Assembly: GCA_041611735.1 (NCBI GenBank)
Contig: JBFIML010000055.1
Span: 1 to 21,746 of the forward strand
Length of the DNA stretch: 21,746 bases
Direction: 5' to 3'
Origin: Myxococcota bacterium
Lineage (GTDB): Bacteria > Myxococcota_A > UBA9160 > PR03
In this document: positions 1 through 19,372 of the stretch, in pieces
How positions within the stretch are numbered: position 1 is the first letter of the stretch
Layout: each line of letters opens with the position of its first letter
The notes under the pieces: generated by a model
What the model saw: only the letters and a program-made list of their open reading frames with translations
The model's database searches: none
What the model was told of the DNA's origin: nothing
Made by a program: the position numbers and the translations under genes

Positions 1-751
1 ACTCGGGCAAGGGTCGCCCCCCGCACGACCTGGAGCGGATGCTGCGGATCTACTTCCTGCAGCAGTGGTTCAACCTGTCGGACCCGCAGGCGGAGGACGC
101 CATCTACGACAGCGAGTCGATGCGGCGCTTCGCCCGCGTCGAGCTGGGCGACGACAAAATCCCGGACGAGTCGACGATCCTGCGCTTCCGCCACCTGCTC
201 GGGAAGCACGGGCTCACGGAGGTGATCTTCGAGGCGGTGAACGACCTGTTGGCGGAGCATCGGCTGACGCTGCGGGCCGGGACGATCGTGGATGCGACGA
301 TCATCGCGGCCCCGAGCTCGACGAAGAACGCCACAGGGACGCGGGATCCGGAGATGAAGCAGACCCGCAAGGGCAAGAGCTGGCACTTCGGGATGAAACT
401 TCACATCGGGACGGATCGGCGCGGGATCGTTCACAGCCTGACGGCCACGCACGCCGCGGAGTCCGACCTCAAGCAGCTCCCGCACCTGCTCCACGGGGAG
501 GAGAGCGCGCTCTACGGCGACCAGGCGTACTGGAAGGAGCCCGATCGGCAGGCCTTCGAGGAGCGCGGCGGGCGCTACCGGGTCAAGCGGCGCGCTCCCG
601 GAGGCAATCGCAACCTGAGCGAGAGGCGTCCTGTGACCAGCCGAGCACGGCGAAGGTCCCGACGAACGCCCGGCCAGGGCGACGAAGGGGCCTTCCTCCT
701 CAGCCCTCGCTCCGCCAGCGGCCGCCACGAAGCCGCATGTGCAGAGCTTCC
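1..751 (+). mobile_element. IS5-family (IS5 subgroup) insertion sequence, right-hand part; left end outside the window, internal deletion in tnp
   Basis: IS5-type transposase sequence followed by TGTGCAGAGCTTCC (738-751; reverse complement GGAAGCTCTGCACA, resembling IS5-subgroup terminal inverted repeats) and then CTAG (752-755), the typical IS5-subgroup target tetramer. Confidence 0.85.
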
Positions 752-755
752 CTAG
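3..755 (+). pseudogene. IS5-family DDE transposase, 5' end outside the window, C-terminally truncated
   Basis: GRPP..LERMLRIYFLQQWFNLSDP, PDESTILRFRHLL, IVDATII (first Asp), HFGMKLHIG and YGDQAY (second Asp) are present. Similarity stops after NLSER (~627); I found no R.RVEH.F motif (catalytic Glu) or VRYRG motif. The frame runs on to the TAG inside CTAG. Confidence 0.88.
738..755 (+). repeat. Right terminal inverted repeat of the IS plus CTAG target site
   Basis: tgtgcagagcttcc|ctag. The partner left IR and duplicate CTAG are outside the window, so pairing cannot be confirmed. Confidence 0.7.
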
Positions 756-2883: not shown

Positions 2884-2933
2884 CGCCGCGGCCCTCACCG
2901 CCGTTCAATCGCGTGGATCAGCCGAGCCAGGCG

Positions 2934-2939
2934 TACAAT
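2934..2939 (+). promoter_or_regulatory. Putative -10 hexamer (TACAAT) for the ECF sigma gene, leaderless-type spacing
   Basis: TACAAT 8 nt before ATG 2948, no SD; it lies inside the second copy of an 11-nt direct repeat. Confidence 0.45.
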
Positions 2940-2947
2940 CGCTTCCG

Positions 2948-3363
2948 ATGTCCGACGACCGACCCGGCATCACGGAGCTCCTGAACATCCCGCAGAAAGG
3001 TGACCCCGACGAGCTCTGGGCCAGGGTCCATCCCGAACTCCGCCGACGAGCGAGAAACCTGCTGCGCGGCGAACGCTCCGACCATACGCTGACCCCCACC
3101 GCCGTGGTCCACGAGGCCTATCTAAGACTGGCGACGCGCGGCGCTCGCGACTGGCAGGACCGCTCGCACTTCTATGCGACCGCATCGGGCATCATGCGCC
3201 ACGTCCTGATCGACTACGCGAGGGCGCGCACGACCGACAAGCGCGGGGGCGGCCGTCGAGTCGAGTTCGTCGACGATCGTCGTGTCGCCAGACCGGGTGC
3301 CGATGCGAGGTCTTCCTCGGTTGCACTGAAGCCAGTGCTCCGCCGTATCGGAGATCGACCGCA
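2948..3363 (+). pseudogene. ECF sigma factor of the kinase-associated TIGR02999-like type; sigma2 intact, sigma4 lost
   Basis: ITELL...GD..EL...V..ELRR.A...LRGER.DHTL.PTAVVHEAYLRL....W.DR.HF.A.A...MR..LID.AR.....KRGGG is typical of this ECF type. After ~3280 the sequence decays (LH-EA, LRR and EID appear in shifting frames) and no sigma4 HTH follows. The 2948-3595 ORF merely runs antisense into the kinase gene. Confidence 0.85.
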
Positions 3364-6300
3364 TCAGGTTCCGCTGGAGCCGAGCGACGCGCGGAAGGCG
3401 TCCGCGAAGCTCCCGCAGGACGGGAAGCGGGCGTCCGGGTCGCGCTGCAAGGTGCGCATCACCGCCGTGCACAACGGCTCGGGAAGCTCCTCGGCCCGGT
3501 CGACGAGCGGCGTGGGCTCGTCGCTCACCTTCGCGAGCAGGAGCTCGCCTGGGGCCAGCTCCTCGAAGGGGAGGCGACCCGACAGCGCCTCGTAGACCAC
3601 AACGCCGAGCCCGTACTGGTCGTACGCCGGTGCGAACTCGCGGTCGAGGGCTTCGGGCGGCGTGTAGTTCGCGGCCCCGAGCAGGAGACCGGGCCGGGTG
3701 AGATCCGTTTCGGCCTCCGTCGCCTTCGGCTCGGCACGCGGCCACGGCTCGCTCTCTCCGAGCGCCGTGGCAATGCCGAGGTCGGAGAGATAGGCGTGCC
3801 CGTCGTCGTCGAAGAGCACGTTGTCGGGCTTCACGTCCCGGTGCACGAACCCCGTGGCATGGAGGTGGTCGAGCGCAGAGGCCACCTGAGCGAGCCACTC
3901 GACCAGCTGGGTCGGCGAGATGCGTCCTCCGGCCGCCTCCAGACGCTGGCGCAGGTCGCCCCCGCCGAGGTGCTGAACCACGGCGTAGGGGACGCCCTGC
4001 TCCTCGCCCACGTCGTGGATCTTCACCACGTGGGGATGCTCCAGGCGGGTCAGGTTTCGCACCTCGGCGGCGAAGCGCTCCCGGAAGCCGGGACGCAGCA
4101 GCAGCTCCTCGTGTGGCACCTTGATCACGACGGGACGCTCCAGCCTTCGGTCCGTCGCCCGATAGACCGCAGCCATGCCTCCCGACCCGAGGACCGCGTC
4201 GATCCGGTAGCGGCCCGCGAGCACGAGCCCTGTCCAGTCCGCACCCGCCGCGTCGGCCGGGCCTGGCGGGTGTGCCTCGAGCGGGAGAACGTAGACGTCG
4301 TGGCTCTCCCGGCGCCCACGGATGGCGACGTCCGAGCGGCAATCGAACTCCGCGGCCACGGCGCCGCAGCGCTCCCAGGTGGCGGGGTCGATCACCATGG
4401 CGGCGTCGAGCTGGCGGGTGAGCCCCTGCAGGCGCGCGGCCAGGATCGTGGTATTGCCGATCACGCTCCAGATCAGGCGGTCCACGGCGCGGATGTTGCC
4501 CACGAAGCCGGGCCCCGTGGCGATGCCCACGCCGACGGCCAGGGGCGCAGCGGCGCCGCCCTCCGCATCCAGATCCGCCACCGCCGCCACGATGGCGCGC
4601 CCGGCCTCCACCGCCGCGCGCTCCTTGGCGCCCAGCGCGCGCGGCGCCCCGAACACCGCCATCAGGCCATCGCCGTTGAACTCCACCACGCTACCCCCGT
4701 GCTCGCGCACGAGATGCGAGACGGTCTCCGTGTAGCGGTTCACGGTGGAGAAGATCTCCTGGGCGCGCCGGCTCTCGGCGAAGCTCGTGTAGCCGCGGAT
4801 GTCCACAAAGAGCACCGTCACGTCGCGCTCGCCGGCCTCCAGGTCGAGGTCGTCGCCCGCGGCCAGGGTGTCCGCCACGGCCCCGGGCACGTAGCGGCGC
4901 AGGGACTCCTGCATGGCCTGGGCCTGGCGCAGCACCTCGGCCTGGTCGAAGCGCTCCAGCTGACCGGAGACCTTGTCCGCCACGGCCGCCAGGAGCGTGC
5001 GGTCCGTGGCGGTGTAGACGTCGCCGGAGCGCTTGGGGCCCAGGCACAGCAGGGCGAAGAGCTCGTCGCCCCGCCAGATCGGGACCAGCAGCGGGACGCC
5101 GAGAGCGTCCAGGGTGGCGCGGTCGAAGTCGCTGAGCGCCTGCGCGCGGCGCCCGCGCGGCCAGTCCTCGCTGGCCAGCGGGCCGCGGCGCTCCGCCAGC
5201 AACGCGGCCAGGGAGCTGCGCGCGGGCAGCGCCGGGGGCAGGGCGCGGCCCCGGGCGAAGACCGGCCGCAGGGTCTCCGCCTCGCGCACGTAGAGGGCGC
5301 AGCCCTCCGGGCGCAGCAGGGCGTCGAGGCGCTCCGCCACCCGCGCCAGCAGGGCCTGGGGGCTCGGTGAGCTGGAGACCTCGCGCAGGAGCTCGCCGAT
5401 GCGCTGCTCGAGAGCGTGGCGCTCGGCGAAGAAGACGCGCTCCAGACGCGGCCGCAGGCGCCGGTGGGCCGGGACGGCCACCGCCGCCAGGGCCAGGGAG
5501 AGTGCGACCTGCCCGGTGGTGCGGTCCACGCCGAGCATCTCCGAGGCGGCCTCCGCCGCGCGCGGCACCGCCACCAGCCCGCCCCCCACCAGCAGCACAC
5601 CGAGCACGTTGTAGGAGGCGGTGGCGCTGATCAGGCGGTCCACGTCGAACAGGTTGTAGCGGGCGATGGCGATCAGGAAGCAGATCGGGAGCGCCACCAC
5701 GGCGCTCATCAGGATCTCGTGGATCCACCAGCGGCCCGGGGTGACCGCGGGCACCAGGCTCCCCACCGCCACCGGCAGCACCCCCACCCAGAAGCCGTAG
5801 ACGATCCACTTGAGCTGGCGGCGCCCGAGCGGCTCCGCGTGCACGAAGCGCTGGGTGAGGAGCACGATCATGACGAGGGGTGCCAGGGCGTTCAGGGCGC
5901 CCGCCACCCGAACGCCCGCCTCGGCAGAGACGGGCACGCCGAACACCCAGCCGAGGGCGCCCAGGCCGTAGGCGGCGAAGAGCCAGGTCCAGGCCCGCGT
6001 TCCCCGCCCGGCGGGCGGACCGCCCTCCGGAAAGGCGAGCACCGCCCGGAGCGCCAGCGGGAAGATCAGGAAGGCGGTGCTCGCGAAGAACGCGAACCAC
6101 AGCCACGTCTGCCCGGGCGGGCCCCCGAAGAAGAAGGTCCAGTGCAGGGCGTAGCAGAGCGTCGCCGCAAAGAAGGCCCGCCCGGCGCGAGATCCGGAGC
6201 GCCGCCAGAGCACCAGGAAGCCGGGCACGGCGAAGCCCAGGGAGAGCAGCGGGAGCCGCCAGCTCATGCCCACCGGGCGCAGGGCGAAGGCGGCCTCGCG

Positions 6301-6642
6301 CCGCACGCCCTCGCGCTCCAGCCGCACGGGCACGCGCAGCGTCTCGTCCGCCGCCGGGTAGACCTCCGCCACGAAGCCGAAGGGGCCCCGGCCGGCCAGA
6401 ACCCGCTCGCCCACCCGCAGCAGCCGGTCGCCGACCCGCAGCTCCTCGACGGCCGCCCCGGCGTCGGGCCAGAAGCCCGAGACGGTCGGATGGCCCTCGG
6501 GCGTCGGCGGCGCCGCCACCGTGACCGGCACCCAGGCCAGCGTTCCGCGCGCCAGCTCGCGCAGGTGGAGCCCGAAGCAGAGTGCCCAGAGCGGCACGAA
6601 GACGGCGAGGAGCGCCAGATCCAGGCGCTGGGGCCGCGTCAA
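3364..6642 (-). CDS. Membrane receptor fusion: TM - PDZ-like - multi-TM - GAF - class III nucleotide cyclase - Hanks-type Ser/Thr kinase (1092 aa)
   Basis: TTG start behind GGAGGAGG. PDZ-like LRVGDRLLRVG; about 8-9 further hydrophobic helices; GAF (LLVPI...L...LCLGPKRSGDVYT..DR.LL); cyclase (VLFVDIRGYT, VEFNGDGLMAVFG, GIATG, VIGNTTILAARL); kinase (LGSGGMAAVY, VVIK, HRDVKPDN, DLG, YTPPE, DQYGLG). Confidence 0.93.
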   Translation of the reverse strand: MTRPQRLDLALLAVFVPLWALCFGLHLRELARGTLAWVPVTVAAPPTPEGHPTVSGFWPDAGAAVEELRVGDRLLRVGERVLAGRGPFGFVAEVYPAADETLRVPVRLEREGVRREAAFALRPVGMSWRLPLLSLGFAVPGFLVLWRRSGSRAGRAFFAATLCYALHWTFFFGGPPGQTWLWFAFFASTAFLIFPLALRAVLAFPEGGPPAGRGTRAWTWLFAAYGLGALGWVFGVPVSAEAGVRVAGALNALAPLVMIVLLTQRFVHAEPLGRRQLKWIVYGFWVGVLPVAVGSLVPAVTPGRWWIHEILMSAVVALPICFLIAIARYNLFDVDRLISATASYNVLGVLLVGGGLVAVPRAAEAASEMLGVDRTTGQVALSLALAAVAVPAHRRLRPRLERVFFAERHALEQRIGELLREVSSSPSPQALLARVAERLDALLRPEGCALYVREAETLRPVFARGRALPPALPARSSLAALLAERRGPLASEDWPRGRRAQALSDFDRATLDALGVPLLVPIWRGDELFALLCLGPKRSGDVYTATDRTLLAAVADKVSGQLERFDQAEVLRQAQAMQESLRRYVPGAVADTLAAGDDLDLEAGERDVTVLFVDIRGYTSFAESRRAQEIFSTVNRYTETVSHLVREHGGSVVEFNGDGLMAVFGAPRALGAKERAAVEAGRAIVAAVADLDAEGGAAAPLAVGVGIATGPGFVGNIRAVDRLIWSVIGNTTILAARLQGLTRQLDAAMVIDPATWERCGAVAAEFDCRSDVAIRGRRESHDVYVLPLEAHPPGPADAAGADWTGLVLAGRYRIDAVLGSGGMAAVYRATDRRLERPVVIKVPHEELLLRPGFRERFAAEVRNLTRLEHPHVVKIHDVGEEQGVPYAVVQHLGGGDLRQRLEAAGGRISPTQLVEWLAQVASALDHLHATGFVHRDVKPDNVLFDDDGHAYLSDLGIATALGESEPWPRAEPKATEAETDLTRPGLLLGAANYTPPEALDREFAPAYDQYGLGVVVYEALSGRLPFEELAPGELLLAKVSDEPTPLVDRAEELPEPLCTAVMRTLQRDPDARFPSCGSFADAFRASLGSSGT

Positions 6643-6675
6643 GCGCCTCCTCCGCCCGTCTCGACCGCCCGGGTC

Positions 6676-7350
6676 TCAGGGCGTCAGGAACTTGATCTCG
6701 ATCCGGAAGCGGGCCACCTGGCCGAGGTTCGCGCTGTTGTACTGGTCGATCGCCTGCCCGACCCCCGGCTCCGGACGCAGATCGAAGATCACCGGGAGGG
6801 TGCCCGAGGTGGGCAAACGGCGCCCGAAGATCTGCGCCGCCGCCTCCTGGAGCGCCGCGCCGAAGGGCCCCAGAGCCTCCACGGGGGTCTGGAACACGAA
6901 CGACGTCGCCAGCTGGTCGATCTCGTCCTCGCTGAGGGGCGGGAACCAGTTGCCCACTTCCGGGAAGTCGCCGAAGTTGGCGCTCTGGAAGGTCTCCGCG
7001 AAGAAGAAGGTGCGGCTCCCGTCCCGCACCTCCAGCAGCAGGGTCAGGGTCGGGTTGCCGCCCGCCGCGTTGTTGTCGCCCACCTCCTCGTCGGCCACCA
7101 CCGTGAGGGTGCCGCGCAGGGTCGGGTTGACCGGGAAGTCCACCACGCACGCGAAGGGCACGCCCGTGGGTCGTGCGCCGCAGGGATCCAGCTCGGTCGG
7201 GTCGCAGTCCTGGCCCGACAGCGGCCCCCCCGCGCACACGTTCGGGAGCGCCGCCTGGCGGTTGTCGGAACCGGGCGCTCCGGCCCACGCCGCCCCTGCC
7301 ACCAGCATCCCCAGCATCAGCGCCAGTCCCCTCAGCTCGCTTCCACGCAT
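6676..7350 (-). CDS. Secreted hypothetical protein (224 aa) with an N-terminal four-Cys motif
   Basis: Strong SD AAAGGAGGAG before ATG 7350 (the ORF-track start at 7830 lies inside lnt). Sec-type signal MRGSELRGLALMLGMLVAGAAWA, then CAGGPLSGQDCDPTELDPC...C. Confidence 0.85.
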   Translation of the reverse strand: MRGSELRGLALMLGMLVAGAAWAGAPGSDNRQAALPNVCAGGPLSGQDCDPTELDPCGARPTGVPFACVVDFPVNPTLRGTLTVVADEEVGDNNAAGGNPTLTLLLEVRDGSRTFFFAETFQSANFGDFPEVGNWFPPLSEDEIDQLATSFVFQTPVEALGPFGAALQEAAAQIFGRRLPTSGTLPVIFDLRPEPGVGQAIDQYNSANLGQVARFRIEIKFLTP

Positions 7351-8855
7351 CTCGTTCTCCTCCTTTGCAGCCGCCCTCGCCAGGCGGGCGGTACGAACGT
7401 CGCGGCCAGGGTCGTGGCCGCCAAGAGCGCGCACGGCACGTCGCCCGCGCGCTGATAGAGCGTGACCGTGTCCGAGGGCCGGACGGAGCCCACCAGCACC
7501 TCCGCCCGTCCGAAGTCCCCGAGCTGGGTGACGCGGCCCTGCGGGTCCACGATGGCCGACCAGCCACTGGGGGTGGTGCGCAGGAGCGGACGCCGGTTCT
7601 CCACCGCCCGCACGGCCGCCGTGTGCAGCTCCAGGCGCGCCGGGCCGGGCCCGCCGAGCCAGTCGTCGTTGGAGGGGTTCGCCAGCACCCGGGCTCCGTT
7701 GCGCGCGAGCCGCCGCACCAGCGCCGGGTCCATGGCCTCCGAGCACAGGAAGGCGCCCACCGGCGCCGCGCGGGCCGGCAGCGGCTGCGCCCGTTCGCCG
7801 GCGGAGTAGTGCACCTCGCGGGGCAGCCACGCCTGGAGCGGGTTGCTCTCGGCGAAGGGTAGCGGGCGAAGCTTGTCGTAGCGTCCGCCGAAGCGTCCCT
7901 CACGGATCAGGAAGACCGAGTTGTAGTAGCGGGGCGGCGAGGGGCGCGGCCGGTAGTGGGGCCCTCCCAGCAGGAGATCGGTCCGGCTCTCCCGCAGCGC
8001 GGTCAGGAGCCGCTCCCGATGCGGCGACGCCTCGCGCAGGTAGAAGTCCACGGCGTACTCGGGCCACACGACGAGGTCCGGCTGCCGGGCGGCCGCCGCC
8101 CGGGTGAGCGCCAGATAGCGGGCGAGGTTCGCGTCGCGGTGCTCGGCGCGGCCGCGCGCGTCGCCCTCGGCCCCCTGAACGAGCGCCACCCTGAATGACT
8201 CACCGCTCCCGAAGCTCTGGGCGAGGCGTAGCTCCCCGTAGGCGAGCGCGGCCGCCAGCGCGGCGGCCACGGCCCAAGCGGTGCGCCGTCCCGCACCGCG
8301 CAGGCGCGGCTCGAGCCCGCAGGCGACGGCAAAGCCCACGGCGGCCAGCAGCATGCCCGGCAGGTAGACGCCGCCGAGGTCCGCGCTCTGGATCAGGCGT
8401 CCGCCCGGGAGCTGGGAGGTGGCGAGCAGCGCCCACCCGCCGGGCGGTCCGAAGCTCGTGCGCAGGAGCTCACAGGCGCCCCAGCCGGCGGCGGCGTGGA
8501 GCGGCGTCGCCTCGCGGCGTTGGGCGAGGCGTGCGAGCCAGGCGCAGTACGAACCGTAGAGCGGCGCGATGGGCGCGAGCACGCCGGCGAAGGCCACCCA
8601 GCCGAGGACGGTCGGCACGTCGAAGAAGGCGGCGAGGGTTCCCGGCACGAAGCCGGCCACGCCGATGGCGGTCGCCCCGGTCCAGACGACGCCGAGCCCG
8701 AAGGCGCGCGCTGGGCCGACGCGCGCCGTCGCGGCGTAGAGCGGAGCAAGCGCCACCCATGCCAGTGGCCAGGCGGCAACCGGGGGAAAGCTCAGGGCGT
8801 AGAGCGTCGCCGAGAGCAGGACGAGCATCAGGGCCAGGTTGCACGGGCTCCGCAT
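7332..8855 (-). CDS. lnt: Apolipoprotein N-acyltransferase (Lnt) family protein
   Basis: N-terminal TM bundle (LSFPP..AW.LAWVAL), W..LA.SQ, VALVQG, nitrilase triad motifs WPE / YDK / LCSE, YYNSV, SNDDW, RAVENRR and SAIVDP.G. The start could be 8855 or 8828; TAGAAT lies at 8882-8877 on the minus strand. Confidence 0.93.
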   Translation of the reverse strand: MRSPCNLALMLVLLSATLYALSFPPVAAWPLAWVALAPLYAATARVGPARAFGLGVVWTGATAIGVAGFVPGTLAAFFDVPTVLGWVAFAGVLAPIAPLYGSYCAWLARLAQRREATPLHAAAGWGACELLRTSFGPPGGWALLATSQLPGGRLIQSADLGGVYLPGMLLAAVGFAVACGLEPRLRGAGRRTAWAVAAALAAALAYGELRLAQSFGSGESFRVALVQGAEGDARGRAEHRDANLARYLALTRAAAARQPDLVVWPEYAVDFYLREASPHRERLLTALRESRTDLLLGGPHYRPRPSPPRYYNSVFLIREGRFGGRYDKLRPLPFAESNPLQAWLPREVHYSAGERAQPLPARAAPVGAFLCSEAMDPALVRRLARNGARVLANPSNDDWLGGPGPARLELHTAAVRAVENRRPLLRTTPSGWSAIVDPQGRVTQLGDFGRAEVLVGSVRPSDTVTLYQRAGDVPCALLAATTLAATFVPPAWRGRLQRRRTRCVEAS

Positions 8856-8991
8856 CGGCTTCGGCTTCGACGCGCCATTCTACGCGTTCCGGGCCCGCCA
8901 CGGGGAGACCGACGGAGCGCCCCCGACGGGCCGGGGCCCGGAAGCTGGTATCCCTATGCGCGACGGCCCCTTCCGGGCCGCGGGAGCTGCC

Positions 8992-9852
8992 ATGACCTCA
9001 CCTGCCGTCCATCCCCTGGTCGCCGCCGGCCGCCTGGTGGTGATCCCGGGCGTCTGGGACGCCCTCTCGGCCCGGGTCGCCGAGCAGGCCGGCTTCCCGG
9101 CCCTGGTGCTCACCGGCTACGGCGTCTCCGCCAGCCATCTGGGCGAGCCGGACCTGGGCCTGCTCACCCAGAGCGAGCTCCTGGACGTGGCCCGGCGCGT
9201 GGTGGCCGCGACCCGCGCCGCCCTGGTGGTGGACGGCGACACCGGCCACGGCGGGCCGCTCAACGTGCAGCGCCTGGTGCGCGAGCTGGTTGCCCTCGGT
9301 GCGCGCGGCGTGATCCTCGAGGACCAGCGCTGGCCCAAGCGCTGTGGCCACATGGCGGGCAAGGAGGTGATCGAGGCCGAGGAGCACGCCGCGAAGATCC
9401 GCGCCGCCGTGGAGGCGCGCGGCGAGCACCCCTTCGTGATCACCGCCCGCACCGACTCCCTCGCCACCCACGGCCTGGAGGAGGCCCTGCGCCGCGCCCG
9501 GCTCTACAAGCAGGCCGGCGCCGACGTGCTCTTCGTGGAGGGGCCGCGCTCCCGGGCGGAGCTCGAGCGCGTGGGGCGCGAGCTCCCGAAGCCCCTGGCC
9601 GTGAACCTGATCGAGGGCGGAACGACGCCGCTGCTGCCGCTGGAGGAGCTGGCGGAGCTCGGCTTCTTCAGCGTGGGCTTCGTCCTGTCCGGCCTCTACG
9701 CCGCGGTGCACGCCTTGCAGGAGACCTACCGGGAGATCCGCCGCGCCGGCGCCACCGACGCGCTCCGCGCACGCATGCTCGACTTCGAGGCCTTCAACGC
9801 CCTGATCGGCGCGCCGCGACGCCTGGCGGACGACGAGCGCTTCCGCGCCTGA
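8992..9852 (+). CDS. Isocitrate lyase/PEP mutase superfamily enzyme (methylisocitrate lyase / CPEP mutase-like)
   Basis: PGVWDALSAR, GEPDLGL, VDGDTGHG, LEDQ..PKRCGH, ARTD, AGAD.LFVEG; GGGAG before ATG 8992. The substrate cannot be assigned and there are no prpC/prpD neighbours. Confidence 0.9.
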   Translation: MTSPAVHPLVAAGRLVVIPGVWDALSARVAEQAGFPALVLTGYGVSASHLGEPDLGLLTQSELLDVARRVVAATRAALVVDGDTGHGGPLNVQRLVRELVALGARGVILEDQRWPKRCGHMAGKEVIEAEEHAAKIRAAVEARGEHPFVITARTDSLATHGLEEALRRARLYKQAGADVLFVEGPRSRAELERVGRELPKPLAVNLIEGGTTPLLPLEELAELGFFSVGFVLSGLYAAVHALQETYREIRRAGATDALRARMLDFEAFNALIGAPRRLADDERFRA

Positions 9853-9859
9853 GCGCCGG

Positions 9860-11419
9860 TCAGGCTCCCACGAGGGTGAGATGCACGACCGCCTCCCGGC
9901 GGCCGTCGAGGCCGAGCAGCGCGTTCAGGTCGTCGTCCCAGAAGGCGGCCAGGTTGCGGGCGCGCAGCCGCGCCGCGTTTGCCGCCAGGTAGATGCGCTC
10001 GCCCACCGCCCCCGCTTCCACCAGGAGATCCCGGTAGCTGCGCTCGCCCGCCCGCGCCGCGGTTTCGGCGAGGCGTCCCACCCCGAAGCAGGCCAGCGCC
10101 GCGCTCCCGGCCTTGTCCTGTCCCAGGCAGGCGTCCACCAGGGCCTCGCGCAGGTCGCCGCGCCGCACCGCAACGAGCCGGTTCCCCTGGGCCTGGTAGC
10201 GATGCAGGCCCGCCTCGAGACCCTGCACCCGGTGCACGGCCAGCAGGAGCTCCACGCCGGGCGCGCGCGCCAGGGCCTGGTGTCCCGCCGCCATCTCGAG
10301 CACGAAGCCGAGCTCGCCTGCCGAGAGCGCCCGCGGTCCGAAACGCGCCGCGGAGCAGCGCCGCTCGATCGTGGTCTGCACGCTGCGGGTCGGGGGCGGG
10401 TCGAGCGCCGGGAGGGCGACGCCCGTCGCGTCTGCTGCGGGCGCCGGGCCCGACGCACTCTCGCGCACCTCCGCTGCCGCTCCGGACGTGCCGGGTCCGA
10501 GCGCCGTCGCCGCGTGGTAGCGCTCCGGGACCGGCGCGTCCGGGTCGCCGGCGCGTCCCCGCTCCACCCAGCGCCGCCGCGGGAGCTCCGGGTCCGAGGC
10601 GCCGCGCCGCCCCACGGCGTGCACCGCGCACACGGCCTCGGCGCGGCCGTCCACGCCGAGAAGGGCGTTCAGTCGCGCGTCCTCGAAGCGCAGCGACGCC
10701 GTCTCGCCCAGGCCCATCGCCACCGCCGCCAGGCGCAGGTTCTCGCCGATGTGCCCGGTGTCCAGCAGCGCGTAGCGGTAGGCCCGGTCGCCGTAGCGGC
10801 CGGCGTAGCGACCGAAGACGTTGGTGAGCAGGATCGCCGCCGCGGCGCCGCGTACGGCGGCGGGCTGCTCCAGGGCGTTGGTCACCGCGTCCAGCTGGGG
10901 CGCGGCGCGCAGCCGCACCAGGGCGTGCTTTGGCGCGTGGTAGCGATACACGCCCGGCGGGAGCCCGCGCACCCGCTCCGCCACCAGGTAGACCTCCCCC
11001 GCGTAGAGGGCGCCCGCCGAGGGGGCGGCCCGGTGGTCGTGGGCGCGTTTCGCCCGGGCGCTGCGCCCCGTCGGGCCGTTGGTGAGGAAGAGGAGGCGCG
11101 CCAGCTCGGCGAGCGGGAGCGGCGCGCCCGAGAAGCCGGGCGTCGCGGTGTAGCCGCGCACCGCCTCGACGAGACGAAGCCCCGTGTCGCCCGCGGGCTC
11201 GGGCAGCGCCAGCGTCGGCCCCGCCGCGTGCTGCACGCCCTCCGGCGACGCGCCCAGCACGCGGGACAGCCGCTCGCGCGCCGCGCCGAGCCGCGTGTTG
11301 CGCGTGGCCCGGTGCACCGCCACTGCACCGGGGGCCGCCGGGCGGGCCGACGACCCCGTGGAGAGCAGCGCCAGCGCGCCGGCGGCCAGACGCAGGAAGC
11401 CGCGCCGGTCCGTGGGCAT
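9860..11419 (-). CDS. SagB/ThcOx-type nitroreductase-fold flavoprotein, two tandem domains, with a twin-arginine signal
   Basis: MPTDRRGFLRLAAGALALLS (Tat-like). Domain 1: RAAPSAGALY..EVYLV, GVYRY, RYGDRAYRYALLDTGHIGENL. Domain 2: ERSYR..LVEAG..GERIYLAA, FWDDDLN.LLGLDG. Start re-assigned to ATG 11419. Confidence 0.88.
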   Translation of the reverse strand: MPTDRRGFLRLAAGALALLSTGSSARPAAPGAVAVHRATRNTRLGAARERLSRVLGASPEGVQHAAGPTLALPEPAGDTGLRLVEAVRGYTATPGFSGAPLPLAELARLLFLTNGPTGRSARAKRAHDHRAAPSAGALYAGEVYLVAERVRGLPPGVYRYHAPKHALVRLRAAPQLDAVTNALEQPAAVRGAAAAILLTNVFGRYAGRYGDRAYRYALLDTGHIGENLRLAAVAMGLGETASLRFEDARLNALLGVDGRAEAVCAVHAVGRRGASDPELPRRRWVERGRAGDPDAPVPERYHAATALGPGTSGAAAEVRESASGPAPAADATGVALPALDPPPTRSVQTTIERRCSAARFGPRALSAGELGFVLEMAAGHQALARAPGVELLLAVHRVQGLEAGLHRYQAQGNRLVAVRRGDLREALVDACLGQDKAGSAALACFGVGRLAETAARAGERSYRDLLVEAGAVGERIYLAANAARLRARNLAAFWDDDLNALLGLDGRREAVVHLTLVGA

Positions 11420-11425
11420 GGGGCA

Positions 11426-11448
11426 AGGGTAGGGGATGGGCCTATGCT
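11426..11448. promoter_or_regulatory. Back-to-back -10-like hexamers of a compact divergent promoter
   Basis: Minus strand TACCCT (11431-11426) is 6 nt before ATG 11419; plus strand TATGCT (11443-11448) precedes GGGGGA and ATG 11472. Confidence 0.45.
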
Positions 11449-11471
11449 GTCGGGACACGGCTGGGGGATCG

Positions 11472-12254
11472 ATGCTCGGCTGGCTCAAGGGGACCCCGGG
11501 ACTGCTGCTCCGCACCCTGAAGGACGCGGAGTGGAAGCCGCTGCTCGACTTCGTGACACCCGCCTTCTTCGAGGTCATGCCCGCGCGGGCGCTGCTCGGC
11601 CAGGGCCGGGAGCTGGTGGGCAACGCCCGCGACCGCAAGCGCTTCGCCACGGTGAGGCGTCGCATGCAACAGGGCCTCGACGAGCTCGGCGTTCCGGTCC
11701 GGCTCGGGCCGCCCGGAGCGGGCTCCCCGCCGCCCGGTCTCGGCGAGCTCGCCGAGCCCGAGCGGAGGGCTCGCGGCCAGCGCGTGCTCGAGCTCTACTT
11801 CGCGCAGCTGCTGGCCGGGGACGTGGCGATCCTCGACCTGCGTCCGGACCGTTTCGCGGCGCTCGGGGAGGGCGGTCTCGCCTGGCATCCGGGACCGTAC
11901 TACGTGGACTGGGACCCCGGCTTCGTGGACGCCGTGCGCCGGCTCTACCGCGGCTTCTACCGCGACGACGAGGGCAGCTTCCAGGAGGCACTGGCGGATC
12001 TCGAGCTCCAGGCCGCCGGGGACCTCTTCATCCGCCACTTCGGCGAAGGAGACCAGCGCGCTGTGCGCTTCGACCGCCGCACCTTCCAGCGCTCCTTCCA
12101 CGACATCTTCGTCCGCTGCCGCGACACCGGCGCCTCCCTGCACCCGAACTTCCTGGCCCTGGGCGTCTATCTGGCCACCCTGTACGACCACCTGGCCGAG
12201 CTCCAGGTGCCCCTGGACGTGCGCGCGGCCTTCGACCGCGTGGCCGACGGCTGA
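11472..12254 (+). CDS. Hypothetical protein, resembling a degenerate C-lobe of UbiB/ABC1 (AarF) atypical kinases
   Basis: Clear GC3 coding bias and a GGGGGA SD. GQRVLELYFAQLLAGDVAILDLRPDRF...GGLAWHPG parallels G..L...Y..Q....G..HADPHPGNF...G.L..LDFG. The CDS is well supported; the family is tentative. Confidence 0.75.
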   Translation: MLGWLKGTPGLLLRTLKDAEWKPLLDFVTPAFFEVMPARALLGQGRELVGNARDRKRFATVRRRMQQGLDELGVPVRLGPPGAGSPPPGLGELAEPERRARGQRVLELYFAQLLAGDVAILDLRPDRFAALGEGGLAWHPGPYYVDWDPGFVDAVRRLYRGFYRDDEGSFQEALADLELQAAGDLFIRHFGEGDQRAVRFDRRTFQRSFHDIFVRCRDTGASLHPNFLALGVYLATLYDHLAELQVPLDVRAAFDRVADG

Positions 12255-12354
12255 GCGGGACGGCGTCGAAGCCGGCCCTTGCCTGGGCCCGGGCATCCGT
12301 GCAAGATGCGAGGGGACGACGGCCCATCCACGTCGGGTCGTGGAGGACGAGGCC

Positions 12355-12900
12355 ATGCCGACGCCCGACGAATCCCGGCCGCTCGCCCGAGGTGAAGCGG
12401 CCCCGCAGCCCGGGGGCGAGCTCACGGCCGACGCCGCTCCGTGGGTCTTCTACGGTAGCGTCGCCGGCGTGCTGGGTGCGGCCCTCGTCGCCCTCTTCTT
12501 CTTCGTGGTGGACCTGCGCGAGGGGGCGCCCCTCGCCACCCCCGCCGCCCTCGGCTCGGGTCTGTTCCGCGGCCAGCCCCTCGCGGCCGGCGCGCCCGCC
12601 GAGCCCATCCTGGTGCTCGGCTACACCGCCATCCACGGCGGCGTCTTCCTGGCGGTGGGCTTGACGGCGGCCTTCGCCCTGATGGGCTCCACCCGCCGCC
12701 GGGGCGCCGCCACCGCAGCCGGTCTGGCCGTCGCCTTCTTTGCCTTCTTCGAGCTCTTCTTCCTGGGCTTCGCCTTCCTGATGCAGCCCGGCCTGGTGGG
12801 CGACCTGGGCGCCGGACGCGTGGCACTGGCCAACCTGCTGGCCGCCGTGGCCATGGCCCTCTACCTGCTGCGCGCGCCCCTGCAAGCGCCAGCGGACTGA
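12355..12900 (+). CDS. Hypothetical 4-TM membrane protein
   Basis: GGAGG SD before ATG 12355; four hydrophobic helices; G..AG..GA..VA.FF...D...G.P..TPA.LG pattern. Confidence 0.82.
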   Translation: MPTPDESRPLARGEAAPQPGGELTADAAPWVFYGSVAGVLGAALVALFFFVVDLREGAPLATPAALGSGLFRGQPLAAGAPAEPILVLGYTAIHGGVFLAVGLTAAFALMGSTRRRGAATAAGLAVAFFAFFELFFLGFAFLMQPGLVGDLGAGRVALANLLAAVAMALYLLRAPLQAPAD

Positions 12901-14513
12901 CGGGCACTGCCACGGGCCGCACCTCCTGGCGCGATCGGGCGCTCCTCGGGGTCGCCGGCCTGGTGCTGTGCTGGCCCGCCTTCTTCAACGGCTATCCGCT
13001 GCTCTACCCGGATTCCACGGGCTATCTGACCAGCGGGCCTTCCGTCATGCGGGCGTTGCTGCTGGGCGAGTACGGCGGCGGGTACGGGAACCGGTCGCTC
13101 CTCTACGGCCTGACGATCCTGCCGCTGCACGTCGCGGGAACACCCTGGCCGATCGTGGGCTTCCACGCGGTGCTCACGGTCTACGTGCTCCGGTTGACCC
13201 TGCAGCGCGTGGCGAGGGTGGCCGACGTCGCCGTCCTGGCGGTGGCCCTGGTCCTGGCGGTCGCCACGGGTGTCGGCTGGTTCGTGGGCGCCGTCATGCC
13301 GGACATCCTCGCACCGCTCACCATCCTGTGTGTCTTCCTGCTGGGTATCGAGTGGCATGCCCTCGAGACGGGCCAGCGCTGGCTGGTGGCCGGGATCGCA
13401 TTGCTGGCGGTCGCCGCCCACCTCTCCCACCTGCTGTTGGCCTGCGGCTTGACGCTCGGGGTTGCCTCGCTCGCGCTGCTCGCGCGCCGGCGAGTGTGGG
13501 GCGCGGTCGGCCGCCTGGCGATGATCCTGGCTCTGGCCACCGCGGGCCAGATCGCCCTCAATGCTCATCTGCTCGGCCAGCCGTCGCTGACCGGGCAGCG
13601 ACCCCCCTTCCTGCTCGCCCGGGTGATCGCCGACGGGCCGGGCCGATGGTACCTGCAACGCCACTGCGACCGCCTGTCCTGGGCGATCTGCGCGTACGCC
13701 GATCGGCTGCCCGACGACGTCCGCGGCGTCCTCTGGGCACCGGACGGCATCTGGCGTCCGGCCAGCCCCGCCCTGCGGCGCCGTCTGCTCCAGGAGGAGT
13801 GGCCGGTCGTCTGGGGGGCCGTGGGCGCCTACCCTGCTGAGCAGCTCCGGGCCTCGCTGCGCAACGCCTGGGCCCAGCTGGGCAAGTTCGGCGTGTGGCT
13901 CTACGACCCGAATCCCTACATCGGCGCCACCATCGGCACGGCGCTGCCCGGGGCCGAGCGTCGCTACGCGAGCACCCGACAGGCTCGGCGGCAGCTCCAC
14001 GAGGGGCTCTTCACGGGGATCCAGGACGTGACGGTGAAGGGATCGCTGCTGGCGATCGCACTGCTGGCCTTCCTGCTCCGGCGCCGATGGACGCATCCGC
14101 TGGGGGCCCTGGCCGTCCTGGTCCTCTCCGGGGTGGTCGGCAACGCGGTGATCGCCGGGGCGCTTGCCAACGTGGAGGATCGCTATCAGGCGCGCGTGAT
14201 CTGGCTGCTGCCGTTCCTGGCCTGCGCCCTCGTCCTGGCGCTGGGCCCGCCTGCTCCGCGGTCTGCTCCCGGGCCGGACGCCGGGGCGGGAGCAGGAGGC
14301 GTGCGAGAGCGATGGCGTCCTCGAACTGCTCGCACAGGACGAGCATCCCCTCTTCGCTGCGCACCAGCCCGCGCGCTCCAGCAGCCGGGCGGGCTGCGGC
14401 TGCACGCCGCCCGGGATCACCCTCGCGCGGCGGGCCAGCAGGCGCCGCAGCGTGGATTCCAGGTTGACGAGGCCCTTCCATGTGGCGAGCACGCTTTCTC
14501 TCGTTGGTCGTAG
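12897..14513 (+). CDS. Polytopic membrane protein, possibly GT-C fold glycosyltransferase-like; start uncertain, C-terminal tail probably read-through
   Basis: WPAFFNGYPLLYPDSTGYL after TM1, MPDI, H.SH, a large extracytoplasmic loop and RYQARVIWL near the last TM. The first standard start (GTG 12963) falls within TM1; an in-frame CTG at 12897 overlaps the upstream TGA. After ~14250 the translation is low-complexity and antisense to a STAS relic. Confidence 0.78.
   Translation: MTGTATGRTSWRDRALLGVAGLVLCWPAFFNGYPLLYPDSTGYLTSGPSVMRALLLGEYGGGYGNRSLLYGLTILPLHVAGTPWPIVGFHAVLTVYVLRLTLQRVARVADVAVLAVALVLAVATGVGWFVGAVMPDILAPLTILCVFLLGIEWHALETGQRWLVAGIALLAVAAHLSHLLLACGLTLGVASLALLARRRVWGAVGRLAMILALATAGQIALNAHLLGQPSLTGQRPPFLLARVIADGPGRWYLQRHCDRLSWAICAYADRLPDDVRGVLWAPDGIWRPASPALRRRLLQEEWPVVWGAVGAYPAEQLRASLRNAWAQLGKFGVWLYDPNPYIGATIGTALPGAERRYASTRQARRQLHEGLFTGIQDVTVKGSLLAIALLAFLLRRRWTHPLGALAVLVLSGVVGNAVIAGALANVEDRYQARVIWLLPFLACALVLALGPPAPRSAPGPDAGAGAGGVRERWRPRTARTGRASPLRCAPARALQQPGGLRLHAARDHPRAAGQQAPQRGFQVDEALPCGEHAFSRWS
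14287..14474 (-). pseudogene. Relic of the C-terminal STAS domain of a SulP/DauA-type anion transporter
   Basis: Minus strand reads GLVNLESTLRRLLARRARVIPGGVQPQPARLLERAG, then after a 1-nt frameshift at ~14368 LVRSEEGMLVLCEQFEDAIALARLLLP. This matches the end of SulP STAS domains (DATGL..LE.......V.L.GV..QP...L.RAG). Confidence 0.7.
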
Positions 14514-14803
14514 CCGGCGCCCTGGCCTGCACCCGGGGCGACGCCGTCGTCGAGAGGATGTCCCCCGCCCAGCGCGACTTCTTCGAGACCCGGGTGCTGG
14601 CGCTCCAGAAGGGCATGACCTCCGACGCCGTGGTGGCCGTCCTGGGCGAGCCCACGCGCGGCGCCGGCAGCCCGCGGCCCTGCTGGTACGCCCCGGAACA
14701 GGGCGCCTGGGGTCAGGTCTGCGCCTACTTCAGCGGGGGCCGTCTGTTCCAGGTGCGCTGGCTCAGCCTCTGGCCGCCCTGGGCCTGGGAGCGGCGCTTC
14801 TAG
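14480..14803 (+). CDS. Small lipoprotein with a SmpA/OmlA (BamE)-like motif
   Basis: Lipobox-like GALAC after a basic and hydrophobic signal; LQKGMTSDAVVAVLGEP motif; GAGG upstream. Confidence 0.75.
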   Translation: MWRARFLSLVVAGALACTRGDAVVERMSPAQRDFFETRVLALQKGMTSDAVVAVLGEPTRGAGSPRPCWYAPEQGAWGQVCAYFSGGRLFQVRWLSLWPPWAWERRF

Positions 14804-14873
14804 CTTGCAGGGGGCGCGGGCTCGCCCGCTCCGCAGAATGCCCGCGAATCACCCCCGAGGGGCAATCCGGGTC

Positions 14874-14903
14874 TTGATCGCCCCATTTACATGCATCTAC
14901 AAT
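14874..14903 (+). promoter_or_regulatory. Sigma70-type promoter TTGATC-N18-TACAAT
   Basis: Near-consensus -35 (14874-14879) and -10 (14898-14903) in an AT-rich patch upstream of GGGAGG and GTG 14946. Confidence 0.65.
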
Positions 14904-14945
14904 GCCGCGGGGTGGAAGGGGGGCCGCCCAAGGGAGGCCCCTGCC

Positions 14946-15533
14946 GTGAGGAAGCCGGAGATTCTCGAGCGGGCCGAGTCCGTCGGCCTTCCCGCACACC
15001 CGTCGCCGGACCCGGGCGGCAACGGAGCGCAGGAAGAGCTGGCCAAGGTCCGCGACATCCTGCTCGGCACCTACACGCTCGAGTTCGAACGCAAGCTCGC
15101 CCAGTTGCATCAGCAGACGGAGGCGAAGGTCGCCGACCTGCGCGCGGACCTGCAGCGCCAGGTCGGGCTCCTGGAGCGCCAGCTCCAGAACGAGGCGAAC
15201 GTTCTCACCGAGCAGCTGCGGAGCGAGCGGCAGCAGCGTGAGGCGGGCGGCGAAGAGGCGCTCGGCAAGCTCTCGCAGCTTCGCAGCGAGCTGGAAGAGC
15301 GCATGCGGCGCGCCGACGCGCAGGGAGAGCAGGCCCACCGGGATCTTCGCGACCAGATCCTGTCCCAGACCAACCTGCTGGCGGCAGCTCTGGAAAAGCG
15401 CCACCAGGAGGCCACGCGGATGATCTCGGAGGGATTGCTGGAGCTGCGCTCTTCCAAGACCGACGGCGCGACCTTGTCCAGCCTGCTTACGGAGCTCGCA
15501 AATCGCTTGCAGGAAGCCCCGCGGTCGGACTGA
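14946..15533 (+). CDS. Conserved coiled-coil hypothetical protein (195 aa)
   Basis: GGGAGG before GTG 14946; L.KVRDIL.G....EFE.K and K.D...L..LL.E.A.RL motifs enclosing a long E/Q/R/L-rich heptad region. Confidence 0.82.
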   Translation: MRKPEILERAESVGLPAHPSPDPGGNGAQEELAKVRDILLGTYTLEFERKLAQLHQQTEAKVADLRADLQRQVGLLERQLQNEANVLTEQLRSERQQREAGGEEALGKLSQLRSELEERMRRADAQGEQAHRDLRDQILSQTNLLAAALEKRHQEATRMISEGLLELRSSKTDGATLSSLLTELANRLQEAPRSD

Positions 15534-15578
15534 CGTCCCGCCGGCGCGCGACCTGCTGCTGTAGCCGCGGAGAACGCC

Positions 15579-16427
15579 GTGTACGAATCCTTCTTCGGTC
15601 TCGCCCGGGAGCCCTTCTCCATGGCTCCGGATCCTCGTTTCCTGTGGCTCTCCGAGACCCACCACGAGGGTCTGGCCGTGATCCACTACGGCCTGCTGCG
15701 TCGCAAGCCCTTCGTGCTGCTCACGGGCGAGGCGGGCAGCGGCAAGACGACGCTCCTGCGCAGCGCCCTGGCGCGGCTCCCGGCGGAGCTGGAGGCGGCC
15801 GTCATCCTGAACACCGCCGACGCGACGCCCGTCACGCTGCTCGCGCTCCTCGCCGAGCAGTTCGGGCTGTCGGTGGTCTCGGATGCGAAGGTGGACTACG
15901 TGATCGCCATCACCCGACACCTGGTGGATCGACTGCGCAGCGACCGGCACGCCGTCCTCGTCGTCGACGAGGCGCAGAATCTCGGGATGCCGGCGCTGGA
16001 AGAGCTGCGGCTCCTCTCGAATCTGACCACCGACACGGAGACCGTGCTTCCCATCGTGCTGGCCGGCCAGCCGGAGCTGCGCCGCAAGCTGGCCGCGCAC
16101 AGCTTGCGCTCGCTGCGGCAGCGCATCGCGATCGAGCACCACGTGGAGCCGCTGCGCTCCCACGAGATCGAGTCCTATCTCTCCCATCGCATCCGGGCGG
16201 CGGGGGGGCGTTACGAGGACACCTTCGTTCCTGGTGTCGAGGACGCCTTCTTCACCTTCTCCGGCGGCACTCCCCGCCTCGTCAATCTGCTGGCCGATCG
16301 GGTCTTGCTGGCAGGCTTCGTCGAACATGCGCGTCCCATCCCCCGCGTGCTGGTGGAGAGGAAGGCCAAGGAGCTCGACGCCGCGCGGGGCGAGGAACGG
16401 CCGGAGCCCGACGAGATGGATTCCTGA
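15579..16427 (+). CDS. ExeA/GspA-like AAA+ ATPase (AAA_22 type), ATPase domain only
   Basis: MYESFFGL..EPF...PDPRF, Walker A GEAGSGKT, Walker B VVDEAQNL, LEELRLLSN, LAGQPEL, LRQRI, SGGTPRL.N. Confidence 0.92.
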   Translation: MYESFFGLAREPFSMAPDPRFLWLSETHHEGLAVIHYGLLRRKPFVLLTGEAGSGKTTLLRSALARLPAELEAAVILNTADATPVTLLALLAEQFGLSVVSDAKVDYVIAITRHLVDRLRSDRHAVLVVDEAQNLGMPALEELRLLSNLTTDTETVLPIVLAGQPELRRKLAAHSLRSLRQRIAIEHHVEPLRSHEIESYLSHRIRAAGGRYEDTFVPGVEDAFFTFSGGTPRLVNLLADRVLLAGFVEHARPIPRVLVERKAKELDAARGEERPEPDEMDS

Positions 16428-19214: not shown

Positions 19215-19372
19215 CGCGCTTCCCCCTGTGGTCGGTCGCCCCGGGCCGATCTTCCGACCGACGGGAGGCGGGGTCAAGGCTACCGTGCCGGGTCAGCGCT
19301 TCGGGCGGGGGCGCTGGCGCCGCCGCGCCGGAGCGCCCATCCTCCCTGCTCCCTACCAGGAGCCCGGTGCCC

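Follow-up and report, generated by a model that had tools for sequence, protein, structure and literature searches.

What is a homologue of apolipoprotein N-acyltransferase (Lnt) doing in one closely packed run of genes with a cysteine-rich secreted protein and a membrane-bound nucleotide cyclase? The question was raised by a stretch of 21,746 nucleotides from a Myxococcota bacterium (GenBank assembly GCA_041611735.1, contig JBFIML010000055.1). This stretch, the window hereafter, is contig C55 of a 4.09-Mb, 118-contig genome (G000) that is 95% complete, with about 73% G+C. In an initial annotation made from the letters alone, the three genes had been proposed as a candidate module of modifier, ligand and receptor. 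The genes and their ribosome-binding sites are as follows.

7332..8855, minus strand: Lnt paralogue of 507 amino acids (aa), with LNT_N and CN_hydrolase (Pfam) and TIGR00546 matches; a member of a clade of 14 sensor-linked Lnts.
7359..7364, minus strand: AGGAGG ribosome-binding site of the secreted-protein gene, within the lnt coding sequence, 8 nt ahead of the ATG at 7350.
6676..7350, minus strand: secreted cysteine-rich protein of 224 aa, ATG at 7350, stop codon at 6676-6678.
6646..6653, minus strand: GGAGGAGG ribosome-binding site ahead of the receptor TTG start, read from the sequence.
3364..6642, minus strand: receptor, whole gene, 1092 aa, TTG at 6642.

On the minus strand the three genes follow one another head to tail. 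The co-orientation and tight spacing given in the initial annotation were confirmed by reading the DNA: the lnt stop codon (TGA, 7334-7332) gives an overlap of 19 nt with the secreted-protein frame, which starts with the ATG at 7350; the Shine-Dalgarno sequence of that gene falls inside lnt; and 33 nt separate its end (6676) from the receptor TTG (6642). In this high-GC DNA many spurious open reading frames (ORFs) overlap the three genes. The G+C content at third codon positions (GC3) of the three chosen frames is 0.91-0.94, homologues of all three products were found elsewhere, and the receptor N-terminus MTRPQRLD is common to the orthologue in a relative, G003.

Is the grouping conserved? 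Neighbourhoods were surveyed in the sampled genomes only, namely 401 genomes of the phylum and a sample of relatives; most of these are metagenome-assembled genomes, and kin among them are not independent. A profile of 104 secreted-family members (A5) matched 11 of the 401 phylum genomes. One match (G280) was partial and weak, with no Lnt or sensor gene within 1.5 kb. At each of the ten others an Lnt paralogue adjoins the match, nine times in the order Lnt, secreted protein, sensor; in the tenth (G151) Lnt and sensor are encoded on the same strand, and the secreted-protein gene is present as a tandem pair divergent from both. Two additional co-linear trios were found in the sample of relatives (G006 and G037). 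In two more genomes, G256 and G022, the order is Lnt, sensor and then a much larger secreted protein, and their Lnts nest inside the same clade. The clade thus numbers 14 Lnts, every one beside an orthologous sensor-cyclase, and the order Lnt, secreted protein, sensor occurs in 11 genomes. The junctions elsewhere are also tight, from a 19-nt overlap to about 50 nt. Trio-bearing genomes belong to families f1, f7, f10, f11 and f12 of one order and to f13, filed under the same class but another order; the flanking genes differ between the window and G003.

The same association was seen from the side of the receptor. A profile of its first 420 residues (the sensor) matched 37 of the 401 genomes, and the nine best-scoring sensors all have both the Lnt gene and the secreted-protein gene upstream. 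Lower-scoring sensor paralogues have neither gene adjoining; among them is a second PDZ-like/polytopic sensor paralogue of the window's own genome (G000:C16:11794-13059; locus L092, 6081-9230), which has no Lnt or secreted-family gene nearby. The narrower profile A1, made from eight close relatives, matched only 5 of the 401 phylum genomes and missed five trio loci found by A5; the extreme rarity of the trio that it implied was an artefact of that profile and was rejected. The A1 search of genome contigs returned one locus, that of the G003 relative, and the metagenome contig search returned two weak ones (L014 and L015).

Lnt and sensor accordingly adjoin one another in 14 genomes, 12 of them with the 224-aa secreted family, and we regard it as highly probable that in Myxococcota the genes form a conserved and functional cassette for envelope signalling whose Lnt paralogue is dedicated to it. 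Of the modifier-ligand-receptor proposal this part holds; the docking of the secreted protein's C-terminus on a PDZ domain, considered below, gained no support. The conserved trio in many Myxococcota points to an undescribed envelope signalling module. Two features of the homologous loci are recorded here. The tandem secreted-protein genes of G151 are followed by a family 2 glycosyltransferase gene and two YbjQ-family genes (L022, 9792-11415, plus strand). At its end the large secreted protein of G022 (L085, 1792-3690, minus strand) has a motif containing Cys-Gly, a run of hydrophobic residues and a tail of basic ones, an arrangement that recalls sorting signals at protein C-termini such as MYXO-CTERM.

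Is the window gene simply the housekeeping lnt, with its neighbours there by accident? An annotation pipeline would call it apolipoprotein N-acyltransferase: TIGR00546 gave 207.9 bits against a cut-off of 132.9, LNT_N 6.8e-18 (65.8 bits) and CN_hydrolase 2.7e-24 (86.4 bits), which places the product in the Lnt family (PF20154 plus PF00795). The genome, however, has three LNT_N matches (contigs C39, C9 and C55), of which the window copy is the lowest scoring. The C9 copy lies between phoH-like and release factor (RF)-family (prfB-like) genes and has canonical ...ICYE... and ...PFGE... motifs; its phoH neighbour agrees with the classical lnt neighbourhood of Escherichia coli. The clade of the C9 copy has short branches. 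Of seven genomes, five contribute a single member each and a sixth two fragments cut off by contig ends; G037, sampled at the trio locus only, contributes none. In a tree of 31 Lnts from the seven genomes, the copies adjoining a secreted-protein gene formed one clade with a Shimodaira-Hasegawa-like approximate likelihood-ratio test (SH-aLRT) value of 98, and in a 35-row tree with seven Lnts added all 14 sensor-linked Lnts did so (SH-aLRT 97); both trees were quick searches without bootstraps. This clade is separate from the phoH-linked copies, and the window Lnt is not orthologous to the housekeeping lnt. A separate housekeeping gene, for which the initial annotation had left room, was thus found. 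Since the genome has two Lnt genes besides this one, of which the C9 copy is linked to phoH and carries the canonical motifs, and since the neighbours of the window copy are kept in 14 genomes of at least six families, f13 lying outside the order, the idea of a sole housekeeping lnt in accidental company was excluded as almost certainly wrong. Expansion of the family was also seen elsewhere: G001, G003, G006, G151 and G392 had 4 to 8 TIGR00546 matches above the cut-off each, distributed over several well-supported clades.

What chemistry might the paralogue perform? Alignment to PDB entries 6nwr and 5n6m predicted a catalytic triad of E266, K328 and C371, and Glu, Lys and Cys are kept at these positions in all 14 sensor-linked Lnts. 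The residue after the catalytic Cys, which is Tyr in the housekeeping clade and in E. coli (Y388), is S372 in the window protein and S, G or A throughout the clade (14/14). A335 stands in place of G342, the Gly of PFGE being Ala or Ser in 13 of the 14. E336 and E373, the equivalents of E. coli E343 and E389, are kept, and the W237 position is Arg in the pairwise alignment. According to PMC5500890, the E. coli triad is E267-K335-C387, the Y388A and G342A enzymes are unable to rescue an lnt deletion, and Y388W still makes the acyl-enzyme, which places Y388 in the acceptor (second) step; W237, E343, Y388 and E389 are listed as essential in PMC3850990. Because the triad is intact and the Tyr is lost, and given the E. 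coli Y388 mutants, the sensor-linked clade looks like an active acyl-enzyme former with a changed second step.

The loss of the Tyr388 and Gly342 equivalents, both needed in E. coli, also tells against a second, condition-specific N-acyltransferase for ordinary lipobox lipoproteins that is merely co-regulated with its neighbours, for instance in envelope stress or development. So do the strict co-inheritance with the sensor (14 genomes, one clade) and the overlaps, resembling translational coupling, with a gene for a non-lipobox protein. Such an enzyme would fit the score above the TIGR00546 cut-off, the retained triad, the presence of 4 to 8 full-scoring homologues in each of these genomes, and the precedent of second Lnt homologues in Streptomyces and mycobacteria, whose role is given as unclear in PMC3850990. 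We consider this explanation distinctly unlikely.

The 224-aa protein encoded between enzyme and receptor was predicted to consist of a signal peptide (residues 1-23, cleaved as AWA/GAPGS, the stroke marking the cut), a low-confidence tether (24-35), a four-cysteine module (36-70; C39, C49, C57 and C68) and an alpha/beta domain (70-224). The lipobox pattern [LVI][ASTVI][GAS]C (PMC12462473) is missing: no Cys occurs before residue 39, the three residues ahead of it are P-N-V, and Val occupies position -1 in 77 of 104 family members. With its AWA/GAPGS signal peptide and a first Cys so far from the cut, the protein is, as the initial annotation had it, not a classical Lnt substrate. Conservation among the 104 aligned members was as follows.

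Four-cysteine module: C39 in 97, C49 in 100, C57 in 99 and C68 in all 104.
Alpha/beta domain: D87 in 99 of 104 and E141 in 98 of 104.
Signal-peptidase site: Ala at -3 in 87, Ala at -1 in 89 and Pro at +3 in 93 of 104.

The Pro at +3 was also read by eye in five further genomes. The conserved AxA/x-x-Pro motif, placed on a tether that is modelled with low confidence, has the look of a site for processing or modification.

No Pfam or NCBIfam match was obtained for the protein, and a Pfam scan of the 104 members gave only scattered weak matches to Cys-rich peptide families, each in at most 4 of the 104. When a 14-sequence profile was searched against 1.84 billion representatives, 209 matches were found at E <= 0.001 (121 at E <= 1e-10), mostly of 210-280 residues; judged by sequence, the protein defines an uncharacterised family of 209 representatives. 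An AlphaFold2 model from the 104-member alignment reached a mean predicted local distance difference test (pLDDT) of 88.5 and a predicted template modelling score (pTM) of 0.80, with about 58-62 over the signal peptide and residues 24-35 and mostly more than 90 over the rest. An earlier model from 14 sequences had reached pLDDT 63.7, with a best Z of 4.4 in a fold search. Foldseek of the 88.5 model against the PDB returned nothing at E <= 0.001 (best 0.064, TM-score below 0.2), the top match of an exhaustive VIA-align comparison with 48,161 chains, GAF B of PDE2A, had a Z of only 5.0 (root-mean-square deviation 3.8, 86 residues aligned), which is below the stated noise level of the tool, and the ESM Atlas gave no usable match for the 224-aa protein. 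The model has no solved relative in these searches and no fold can be assigned to it, from which novelty of the fold does not follow.

What would such a protein act upon? The receptor was divided into the following parts.

6253..6642, minus strand: residues 1-130, a transmembrane (TM) helix (9-27) and an extracytoplasmic PDZ-like region with conserved P52, W58, G71 and D72.
5443..6252, minus strand: residues 131-400, polytopic membrane region, from a hydropathy scan.
4951..5364, minus strand: residues 427-564, GAF domain (Pfam GAF_3, 1.4e-10).
4288..4827, minus strand: residues 606-785, class III cyclase domain (Pfam Guanylate_cyc, PF00211, 52.3 bits against 21.9).
3424..4209, minus strand: residues 812-1073, Ser/Thr kinase domain (Pkinase, PF00069, 1.2e-36, 127 bits).

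Because it is located between the first TM helix and the polytopic part, the PDZ-like region is probably periplasmic. Weaker hydrophobic segments (about 131-148, 156-176 and 378-395) and basic loops (148-156, 263-278 and 396-411), read by eye, would put this region outside and the GAF domain inside. The PDZ label itself was borne out in part: PF00595, PF17820 and PF13180 matched 12, 10 and 2 of 60 homologues (best 2.1e-05), but the window protein had no match at E <= 0.1. HisKA_7TM matched 2 of the 60 homologues and, at E <= 0.1, not the window receptor.

The initial annotation had supposed that the secreted protein (C-terminus ...IKFLTP) may engage this domain. A precedent for a free C-terminus as ligand would be that of outer-membrane proteins, which is bound by the DegS PDZ domain. 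The C-terminal segment is conserved, approximately as R-(F/Y/L)-(K/R)-V-x-I-R-F, two variable residues and Pro (R214 in 74, F221 in 83 and the terminal Pro in 81 of 104), and the probably periplasmic PDZ-like region keeps a ...GFW... stretch together with P52, W58 and G71-D72. The AlphaFold2 model nevertheless places residues 211-222 of the 224, with high confidence, in an integral strand of the beta-sheet, which leaves a tail of two residues. A C-terminal Pro is moreover unusual for PDZ ligands. The partners in G256 and G022 align with the family over the N-terminal module only, and the end of the G022 protein differs; the C-terminal end of the G256 product lies outside the sampled locus. The docking idea gained no support, and we hold a DegS-like role of the C-terminus to be improbable.

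The sensor part is found well beyond the trio. Its N-terminal 420 residues recur in no fewer than 132 protein clusters at E <= 0.001, a count drawn from only those 8000 candidates that shared most words; most are cyclases of about 790 residues. The same N-terminal module was found on a histidine kinase plus receiver (P0112, P0114, P0117 and P0125) and on TIR (P0118), so that this unit of TM helix, PDZ-like region and polytopic membrane region behaves as a portable sensor, as far as sequence comparison can tell.

The six aligned orthologues, of which the window receptor is one, correspond from residue 1 up to where the cyclase domain stops, with identities of 41-83%. D614 and D658, which we take to be the metal ligands of the cyclase, are invariant in the six and at least 90% conserved in the 60 homologues. 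The best PDB sequence match of the domain was Cya2 (2w01, 4.4e-20). E654, at least 90% conserved in the 60 homologues, aligns with Cya2 E488, which has been exchanged for Lys in 6fht, an engineered adenylate cyclase. This residue specifies the purine, Glu going with GTP and Lys with ATP, and its partner position is Ser726. Cya2 is a guanylate cyclase whose substrate is switched by the single exchange E488K (PMC5995499). The product is probably cyclic GMP (cGMP), made from GTP, because Glu654 matches Cya2 E488.

The description of the protein as a receptor cyclase-kinase stands for both catalytic domains in the window, each recognised by Pfam, but the kinase part is limited to the receptor of this genome, being absent from all five aligned orthologues and from 59 of 60 homologues. 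The translation contains VIK, HRDVKPDN and DLG, presumably the catalytic motifs of a Hanks-type kinase. Contigs assembled from three sequencing runs, which belong to two studies, span the cyclase-kinase junction; one of them, 1513 bases long and covering 2900-4412, comes from a study that is not the likely source of the assembly. The fusion is therefore unlikely to be an assembly error. Convergent with the kinase-coding part, and overlapping its 3' end by its last 232 nt, lies an extracytoplasmic function (ECF) sigma-factor ORF (2948-3595, plus strand) that covers only positions 4-132 of the 185 in its profile and is missing region 4. It is possibly a truncated remnant from the event that added the kinase domain.

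How might the three products work together? The paralogue would form a thioester acyl-enzyme from a membrane phospholipid at the periplasmic face of the inner membrane, and without the Tyr beside the catalytic Cys the acyl chain would pass to an acceptor other than diacylglyceryl-cysteine. The most likely acceptor would be the alpha-amino group that signal peptidase I sets free when it cleaves the co-encoded secreted protein. The acylated protein, held at the outer face of the inner membrane, could then serve as co-receptor or ligand of the PDZ-like and membrane parts of the receptor, which would set the rate of cyclic nucleotide synthesis, probably that of cGMP; in this genome the fused Ser/Thr kinase would provide a second output. 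We infer tentatively that the paralogue acylates the new N-terminus of the secreted protein and that the lipidated protein and the sensor together control cyclic nucleotide synthesis. The fuller version, a lipobox-independent lipidation in which the paralogue recognises the x-x-Pro tether, the product is a lipid-anchored co-receptor of a guanylate cyclase, and two Lnt clades have been recruited to cyclic-nucleotide signalling, appears doubtful to us.

Several observations weigh against acylation of the partner. Canonical Lnt finds its acceptor in the membrane, but signal peptidase I releases a soluble protein. Position +1, where the mature protein begins, is variable (G, S, F, T, I or L), and the third-gene product of G022 has Gln at +3. 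The third genes of G256 and G022 share only the four-cysteine N-terminal module with the family (hhalign probability 87.5% and 62%). Hydropathy at one threshold gave helix 9-27 and six segments between 184 and 359, a provisional helix count and topology for the receptor. On the side of the output, an Asn-Arg pair acts on the transition state in class III cyclases; the window and G003 proteins have I733 at the position that is Asn in Cya2 and in four of six orthologues, with Arg737 kept, and judging from this exchange the Ile733 cyclase may be a weak enzyme. The last such observation comes from a sister clade of Lnts, whose cyclase partners are cytoplasmic and near which no gene of the secreted family was found. 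When the secreted protein in its mature form was modelled together with residues 1-420 of the receptor (alignments A5 and A6), both runs, made without controls, scored 0.00, which speaks neither for nor against binding.

In the sister clade, the Lnt lies directly downstream of homologous proteins of 1167-1607 aa with Guanylate_cyc and AAA_16 domains in three of four loci: G006:C117 (L089, 6865-11936), G001:C65 (L090, 5824-12023) and G006:C121 (L091, 7013-13443); the fourth contig ends 1 kb upstream. At L089 the Lnt is followed by a protein with HEAT and cyclic nucleotide monophosphate (cNMP)-binding domains. The clade had an SH-aLRT value of 84 in the 31-Lnt tree and was unresolved in the 35-row tree. 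In these genomes, then, a minimum of two Lnt paralogue groups are wired to class III cyclases, and because the sister clade shows it, the link between Lnt and cyclase can exist without the secreted family.

The main rival to acylation of the partner builds on this link. The Lnt would act on a lipid or another envelope component, or release lysophospholipid while consuming its acyl donor; the receptor would sense the product or the state of the membrane through its polytopic region; and the secreted protein would be the receptor's periplasmic accessory or binding protein, not a substrate. This account is favoured by the adjacency of Lnt and sensor, which is broader than the secreted family (14 pairs against 12 with the 224-aa family), by the sister clade, with its cytoplasmic cyclase-AAA_16 partners and no secreted partner found, and by the reduced third-gene partners of G256 and G022, although why these two keep the N-terminal module alone would go unexplained. 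The secreted protein was modelled as a sandwich of sheet and helices whose weak best match was GAF (Z 5.0), a shape often used for binding small ligands, yet that match lies under the stated noise level; a HisKA_7TM-like membrane region in 2 of the 60 homologues also fits the sensing of lipid. The conserved AxA/x-x-Pro tether has no explanation here. We rate the lipid account as possible, if somewhat unlikely.

The remainder of the window was also annotated, with the following features outside the trio.

3-755, plus strand: insertion sequence (IS)-type transposase fragment (DUF772 plus DDE_Tnp_1), running off the left contig end.
765-1319 and 1310-2779, both minus strand: overlapping pair encoding a GDYXXLXY protein and a DUF2157 membrane protein.
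8839-9852, plus strand: gene of the phosphoenolpyruvate (PEP)-mutase/isocitrate-lyase family, divergent from lnt.
9860-11665, minus strand: nitroreductase-family ORF of 601 aa.
12254-15534: about 3 kb with no ORF that has a family match.
15579-16427, plus strand: AAA_22/STAND-like ATPase.
19367-20809, plus strand: pyruvate kinase.

How does the cassette compare with known systems? The Lnts of E. coli and Pseudomonas aeruginosa (PDB 6nwr, 5xhq, 5n6h and 5n6m) have the same build, an eight-helix LNT_N part with a periplasmic nitrilase-type domain, the triad and the E343 and E389 equivalents, and the same thioester acyl-enzyme chemistry is presumed for the paralogue by analogy. The window copy matches the solved Lnts with only about 89 bits and differs from them as a paralogue of a separate clade, with Y388 replaced by Ser, G342 by Ala and W237 by Arg, and with a partner that has no lipobox. 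Lnt2 of Streptomyces scabies and BCG_2279c of Mycobacterium bovis BCG are likewise extra Lnts, unable to stand in for the main enzyme and without a settled role. BCG_2279c has Ser for the catalytic Cys, which the sensor-linked clade keeps, and the passages of PMC3850990 from which these descriptions come mention neither a cyclase receptor nor a secreted protein of their own linked to the actinobacterial second Lnts.

Like the receptor, Cya2 of Synechocystis (2w01) joins a sensor outside the cytoplasm to a membrane part and a class III cyclase, with Glu at the E488 position. Its sensor is CHASE2, in place of the PDZ-like, polytopic membrane and GAF parts seen here; it has no kinase fusion; and it has Asn (...VN(L)..R) where the window enzyme has Ile. 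In DegS and RseP, a periplasmic PDZ domain on a membrane protein reports on envelope proteins; the present receptor, by contrast, has no protease domain, its output is a nucleotide cyclase, and its PDZ identity comes from 12 of 60 homologues only. LnsAB of Staphylococcus aureus and Lit are alternative enzymes that alter the N-terminal acylation of envelope proteins; they are not Lnt homologues, act on lipobox lipoproteins and, in the material available on them, have no described signalling partner. A full-text literature search, limited by its terms, returned no paper in which a cyclase receptor, or a partner lacking a lipobox, is linked to an Lnt homologue, in agreement with the initial annotation, which had named no described system with this trio.

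All components but the secreted protein are members of known families. A lasting partnership between an Lnt clade and a cyclase receptor did not turn up in the literature search; the system would be categorically new only if lipobox-independent N-acylation is shown. Should a non-lipobox protein be acylated, a new kind of bacterial lipoprotein would have been found, and should the enzyme act on lipids, membrane lipid turnover would be linked to cGMP or cyclic AMP (cAMP) signalling. The analysis also supplies a family of 209 representatives with a confident model and no solved relative, and a sensor module that is reused with cyclase, histidine kinase and TIR outputs. Lnt has been regarded as a single-purpose housekeeping enzyme of lipoprotein maturation, the extra copies in actinobacteria being without an assigned role; against that background, a clade defined both by its gene partnership and by an active-site change beside the catalytic Cys offers a testable hypothesis for the job of a second Lnt.

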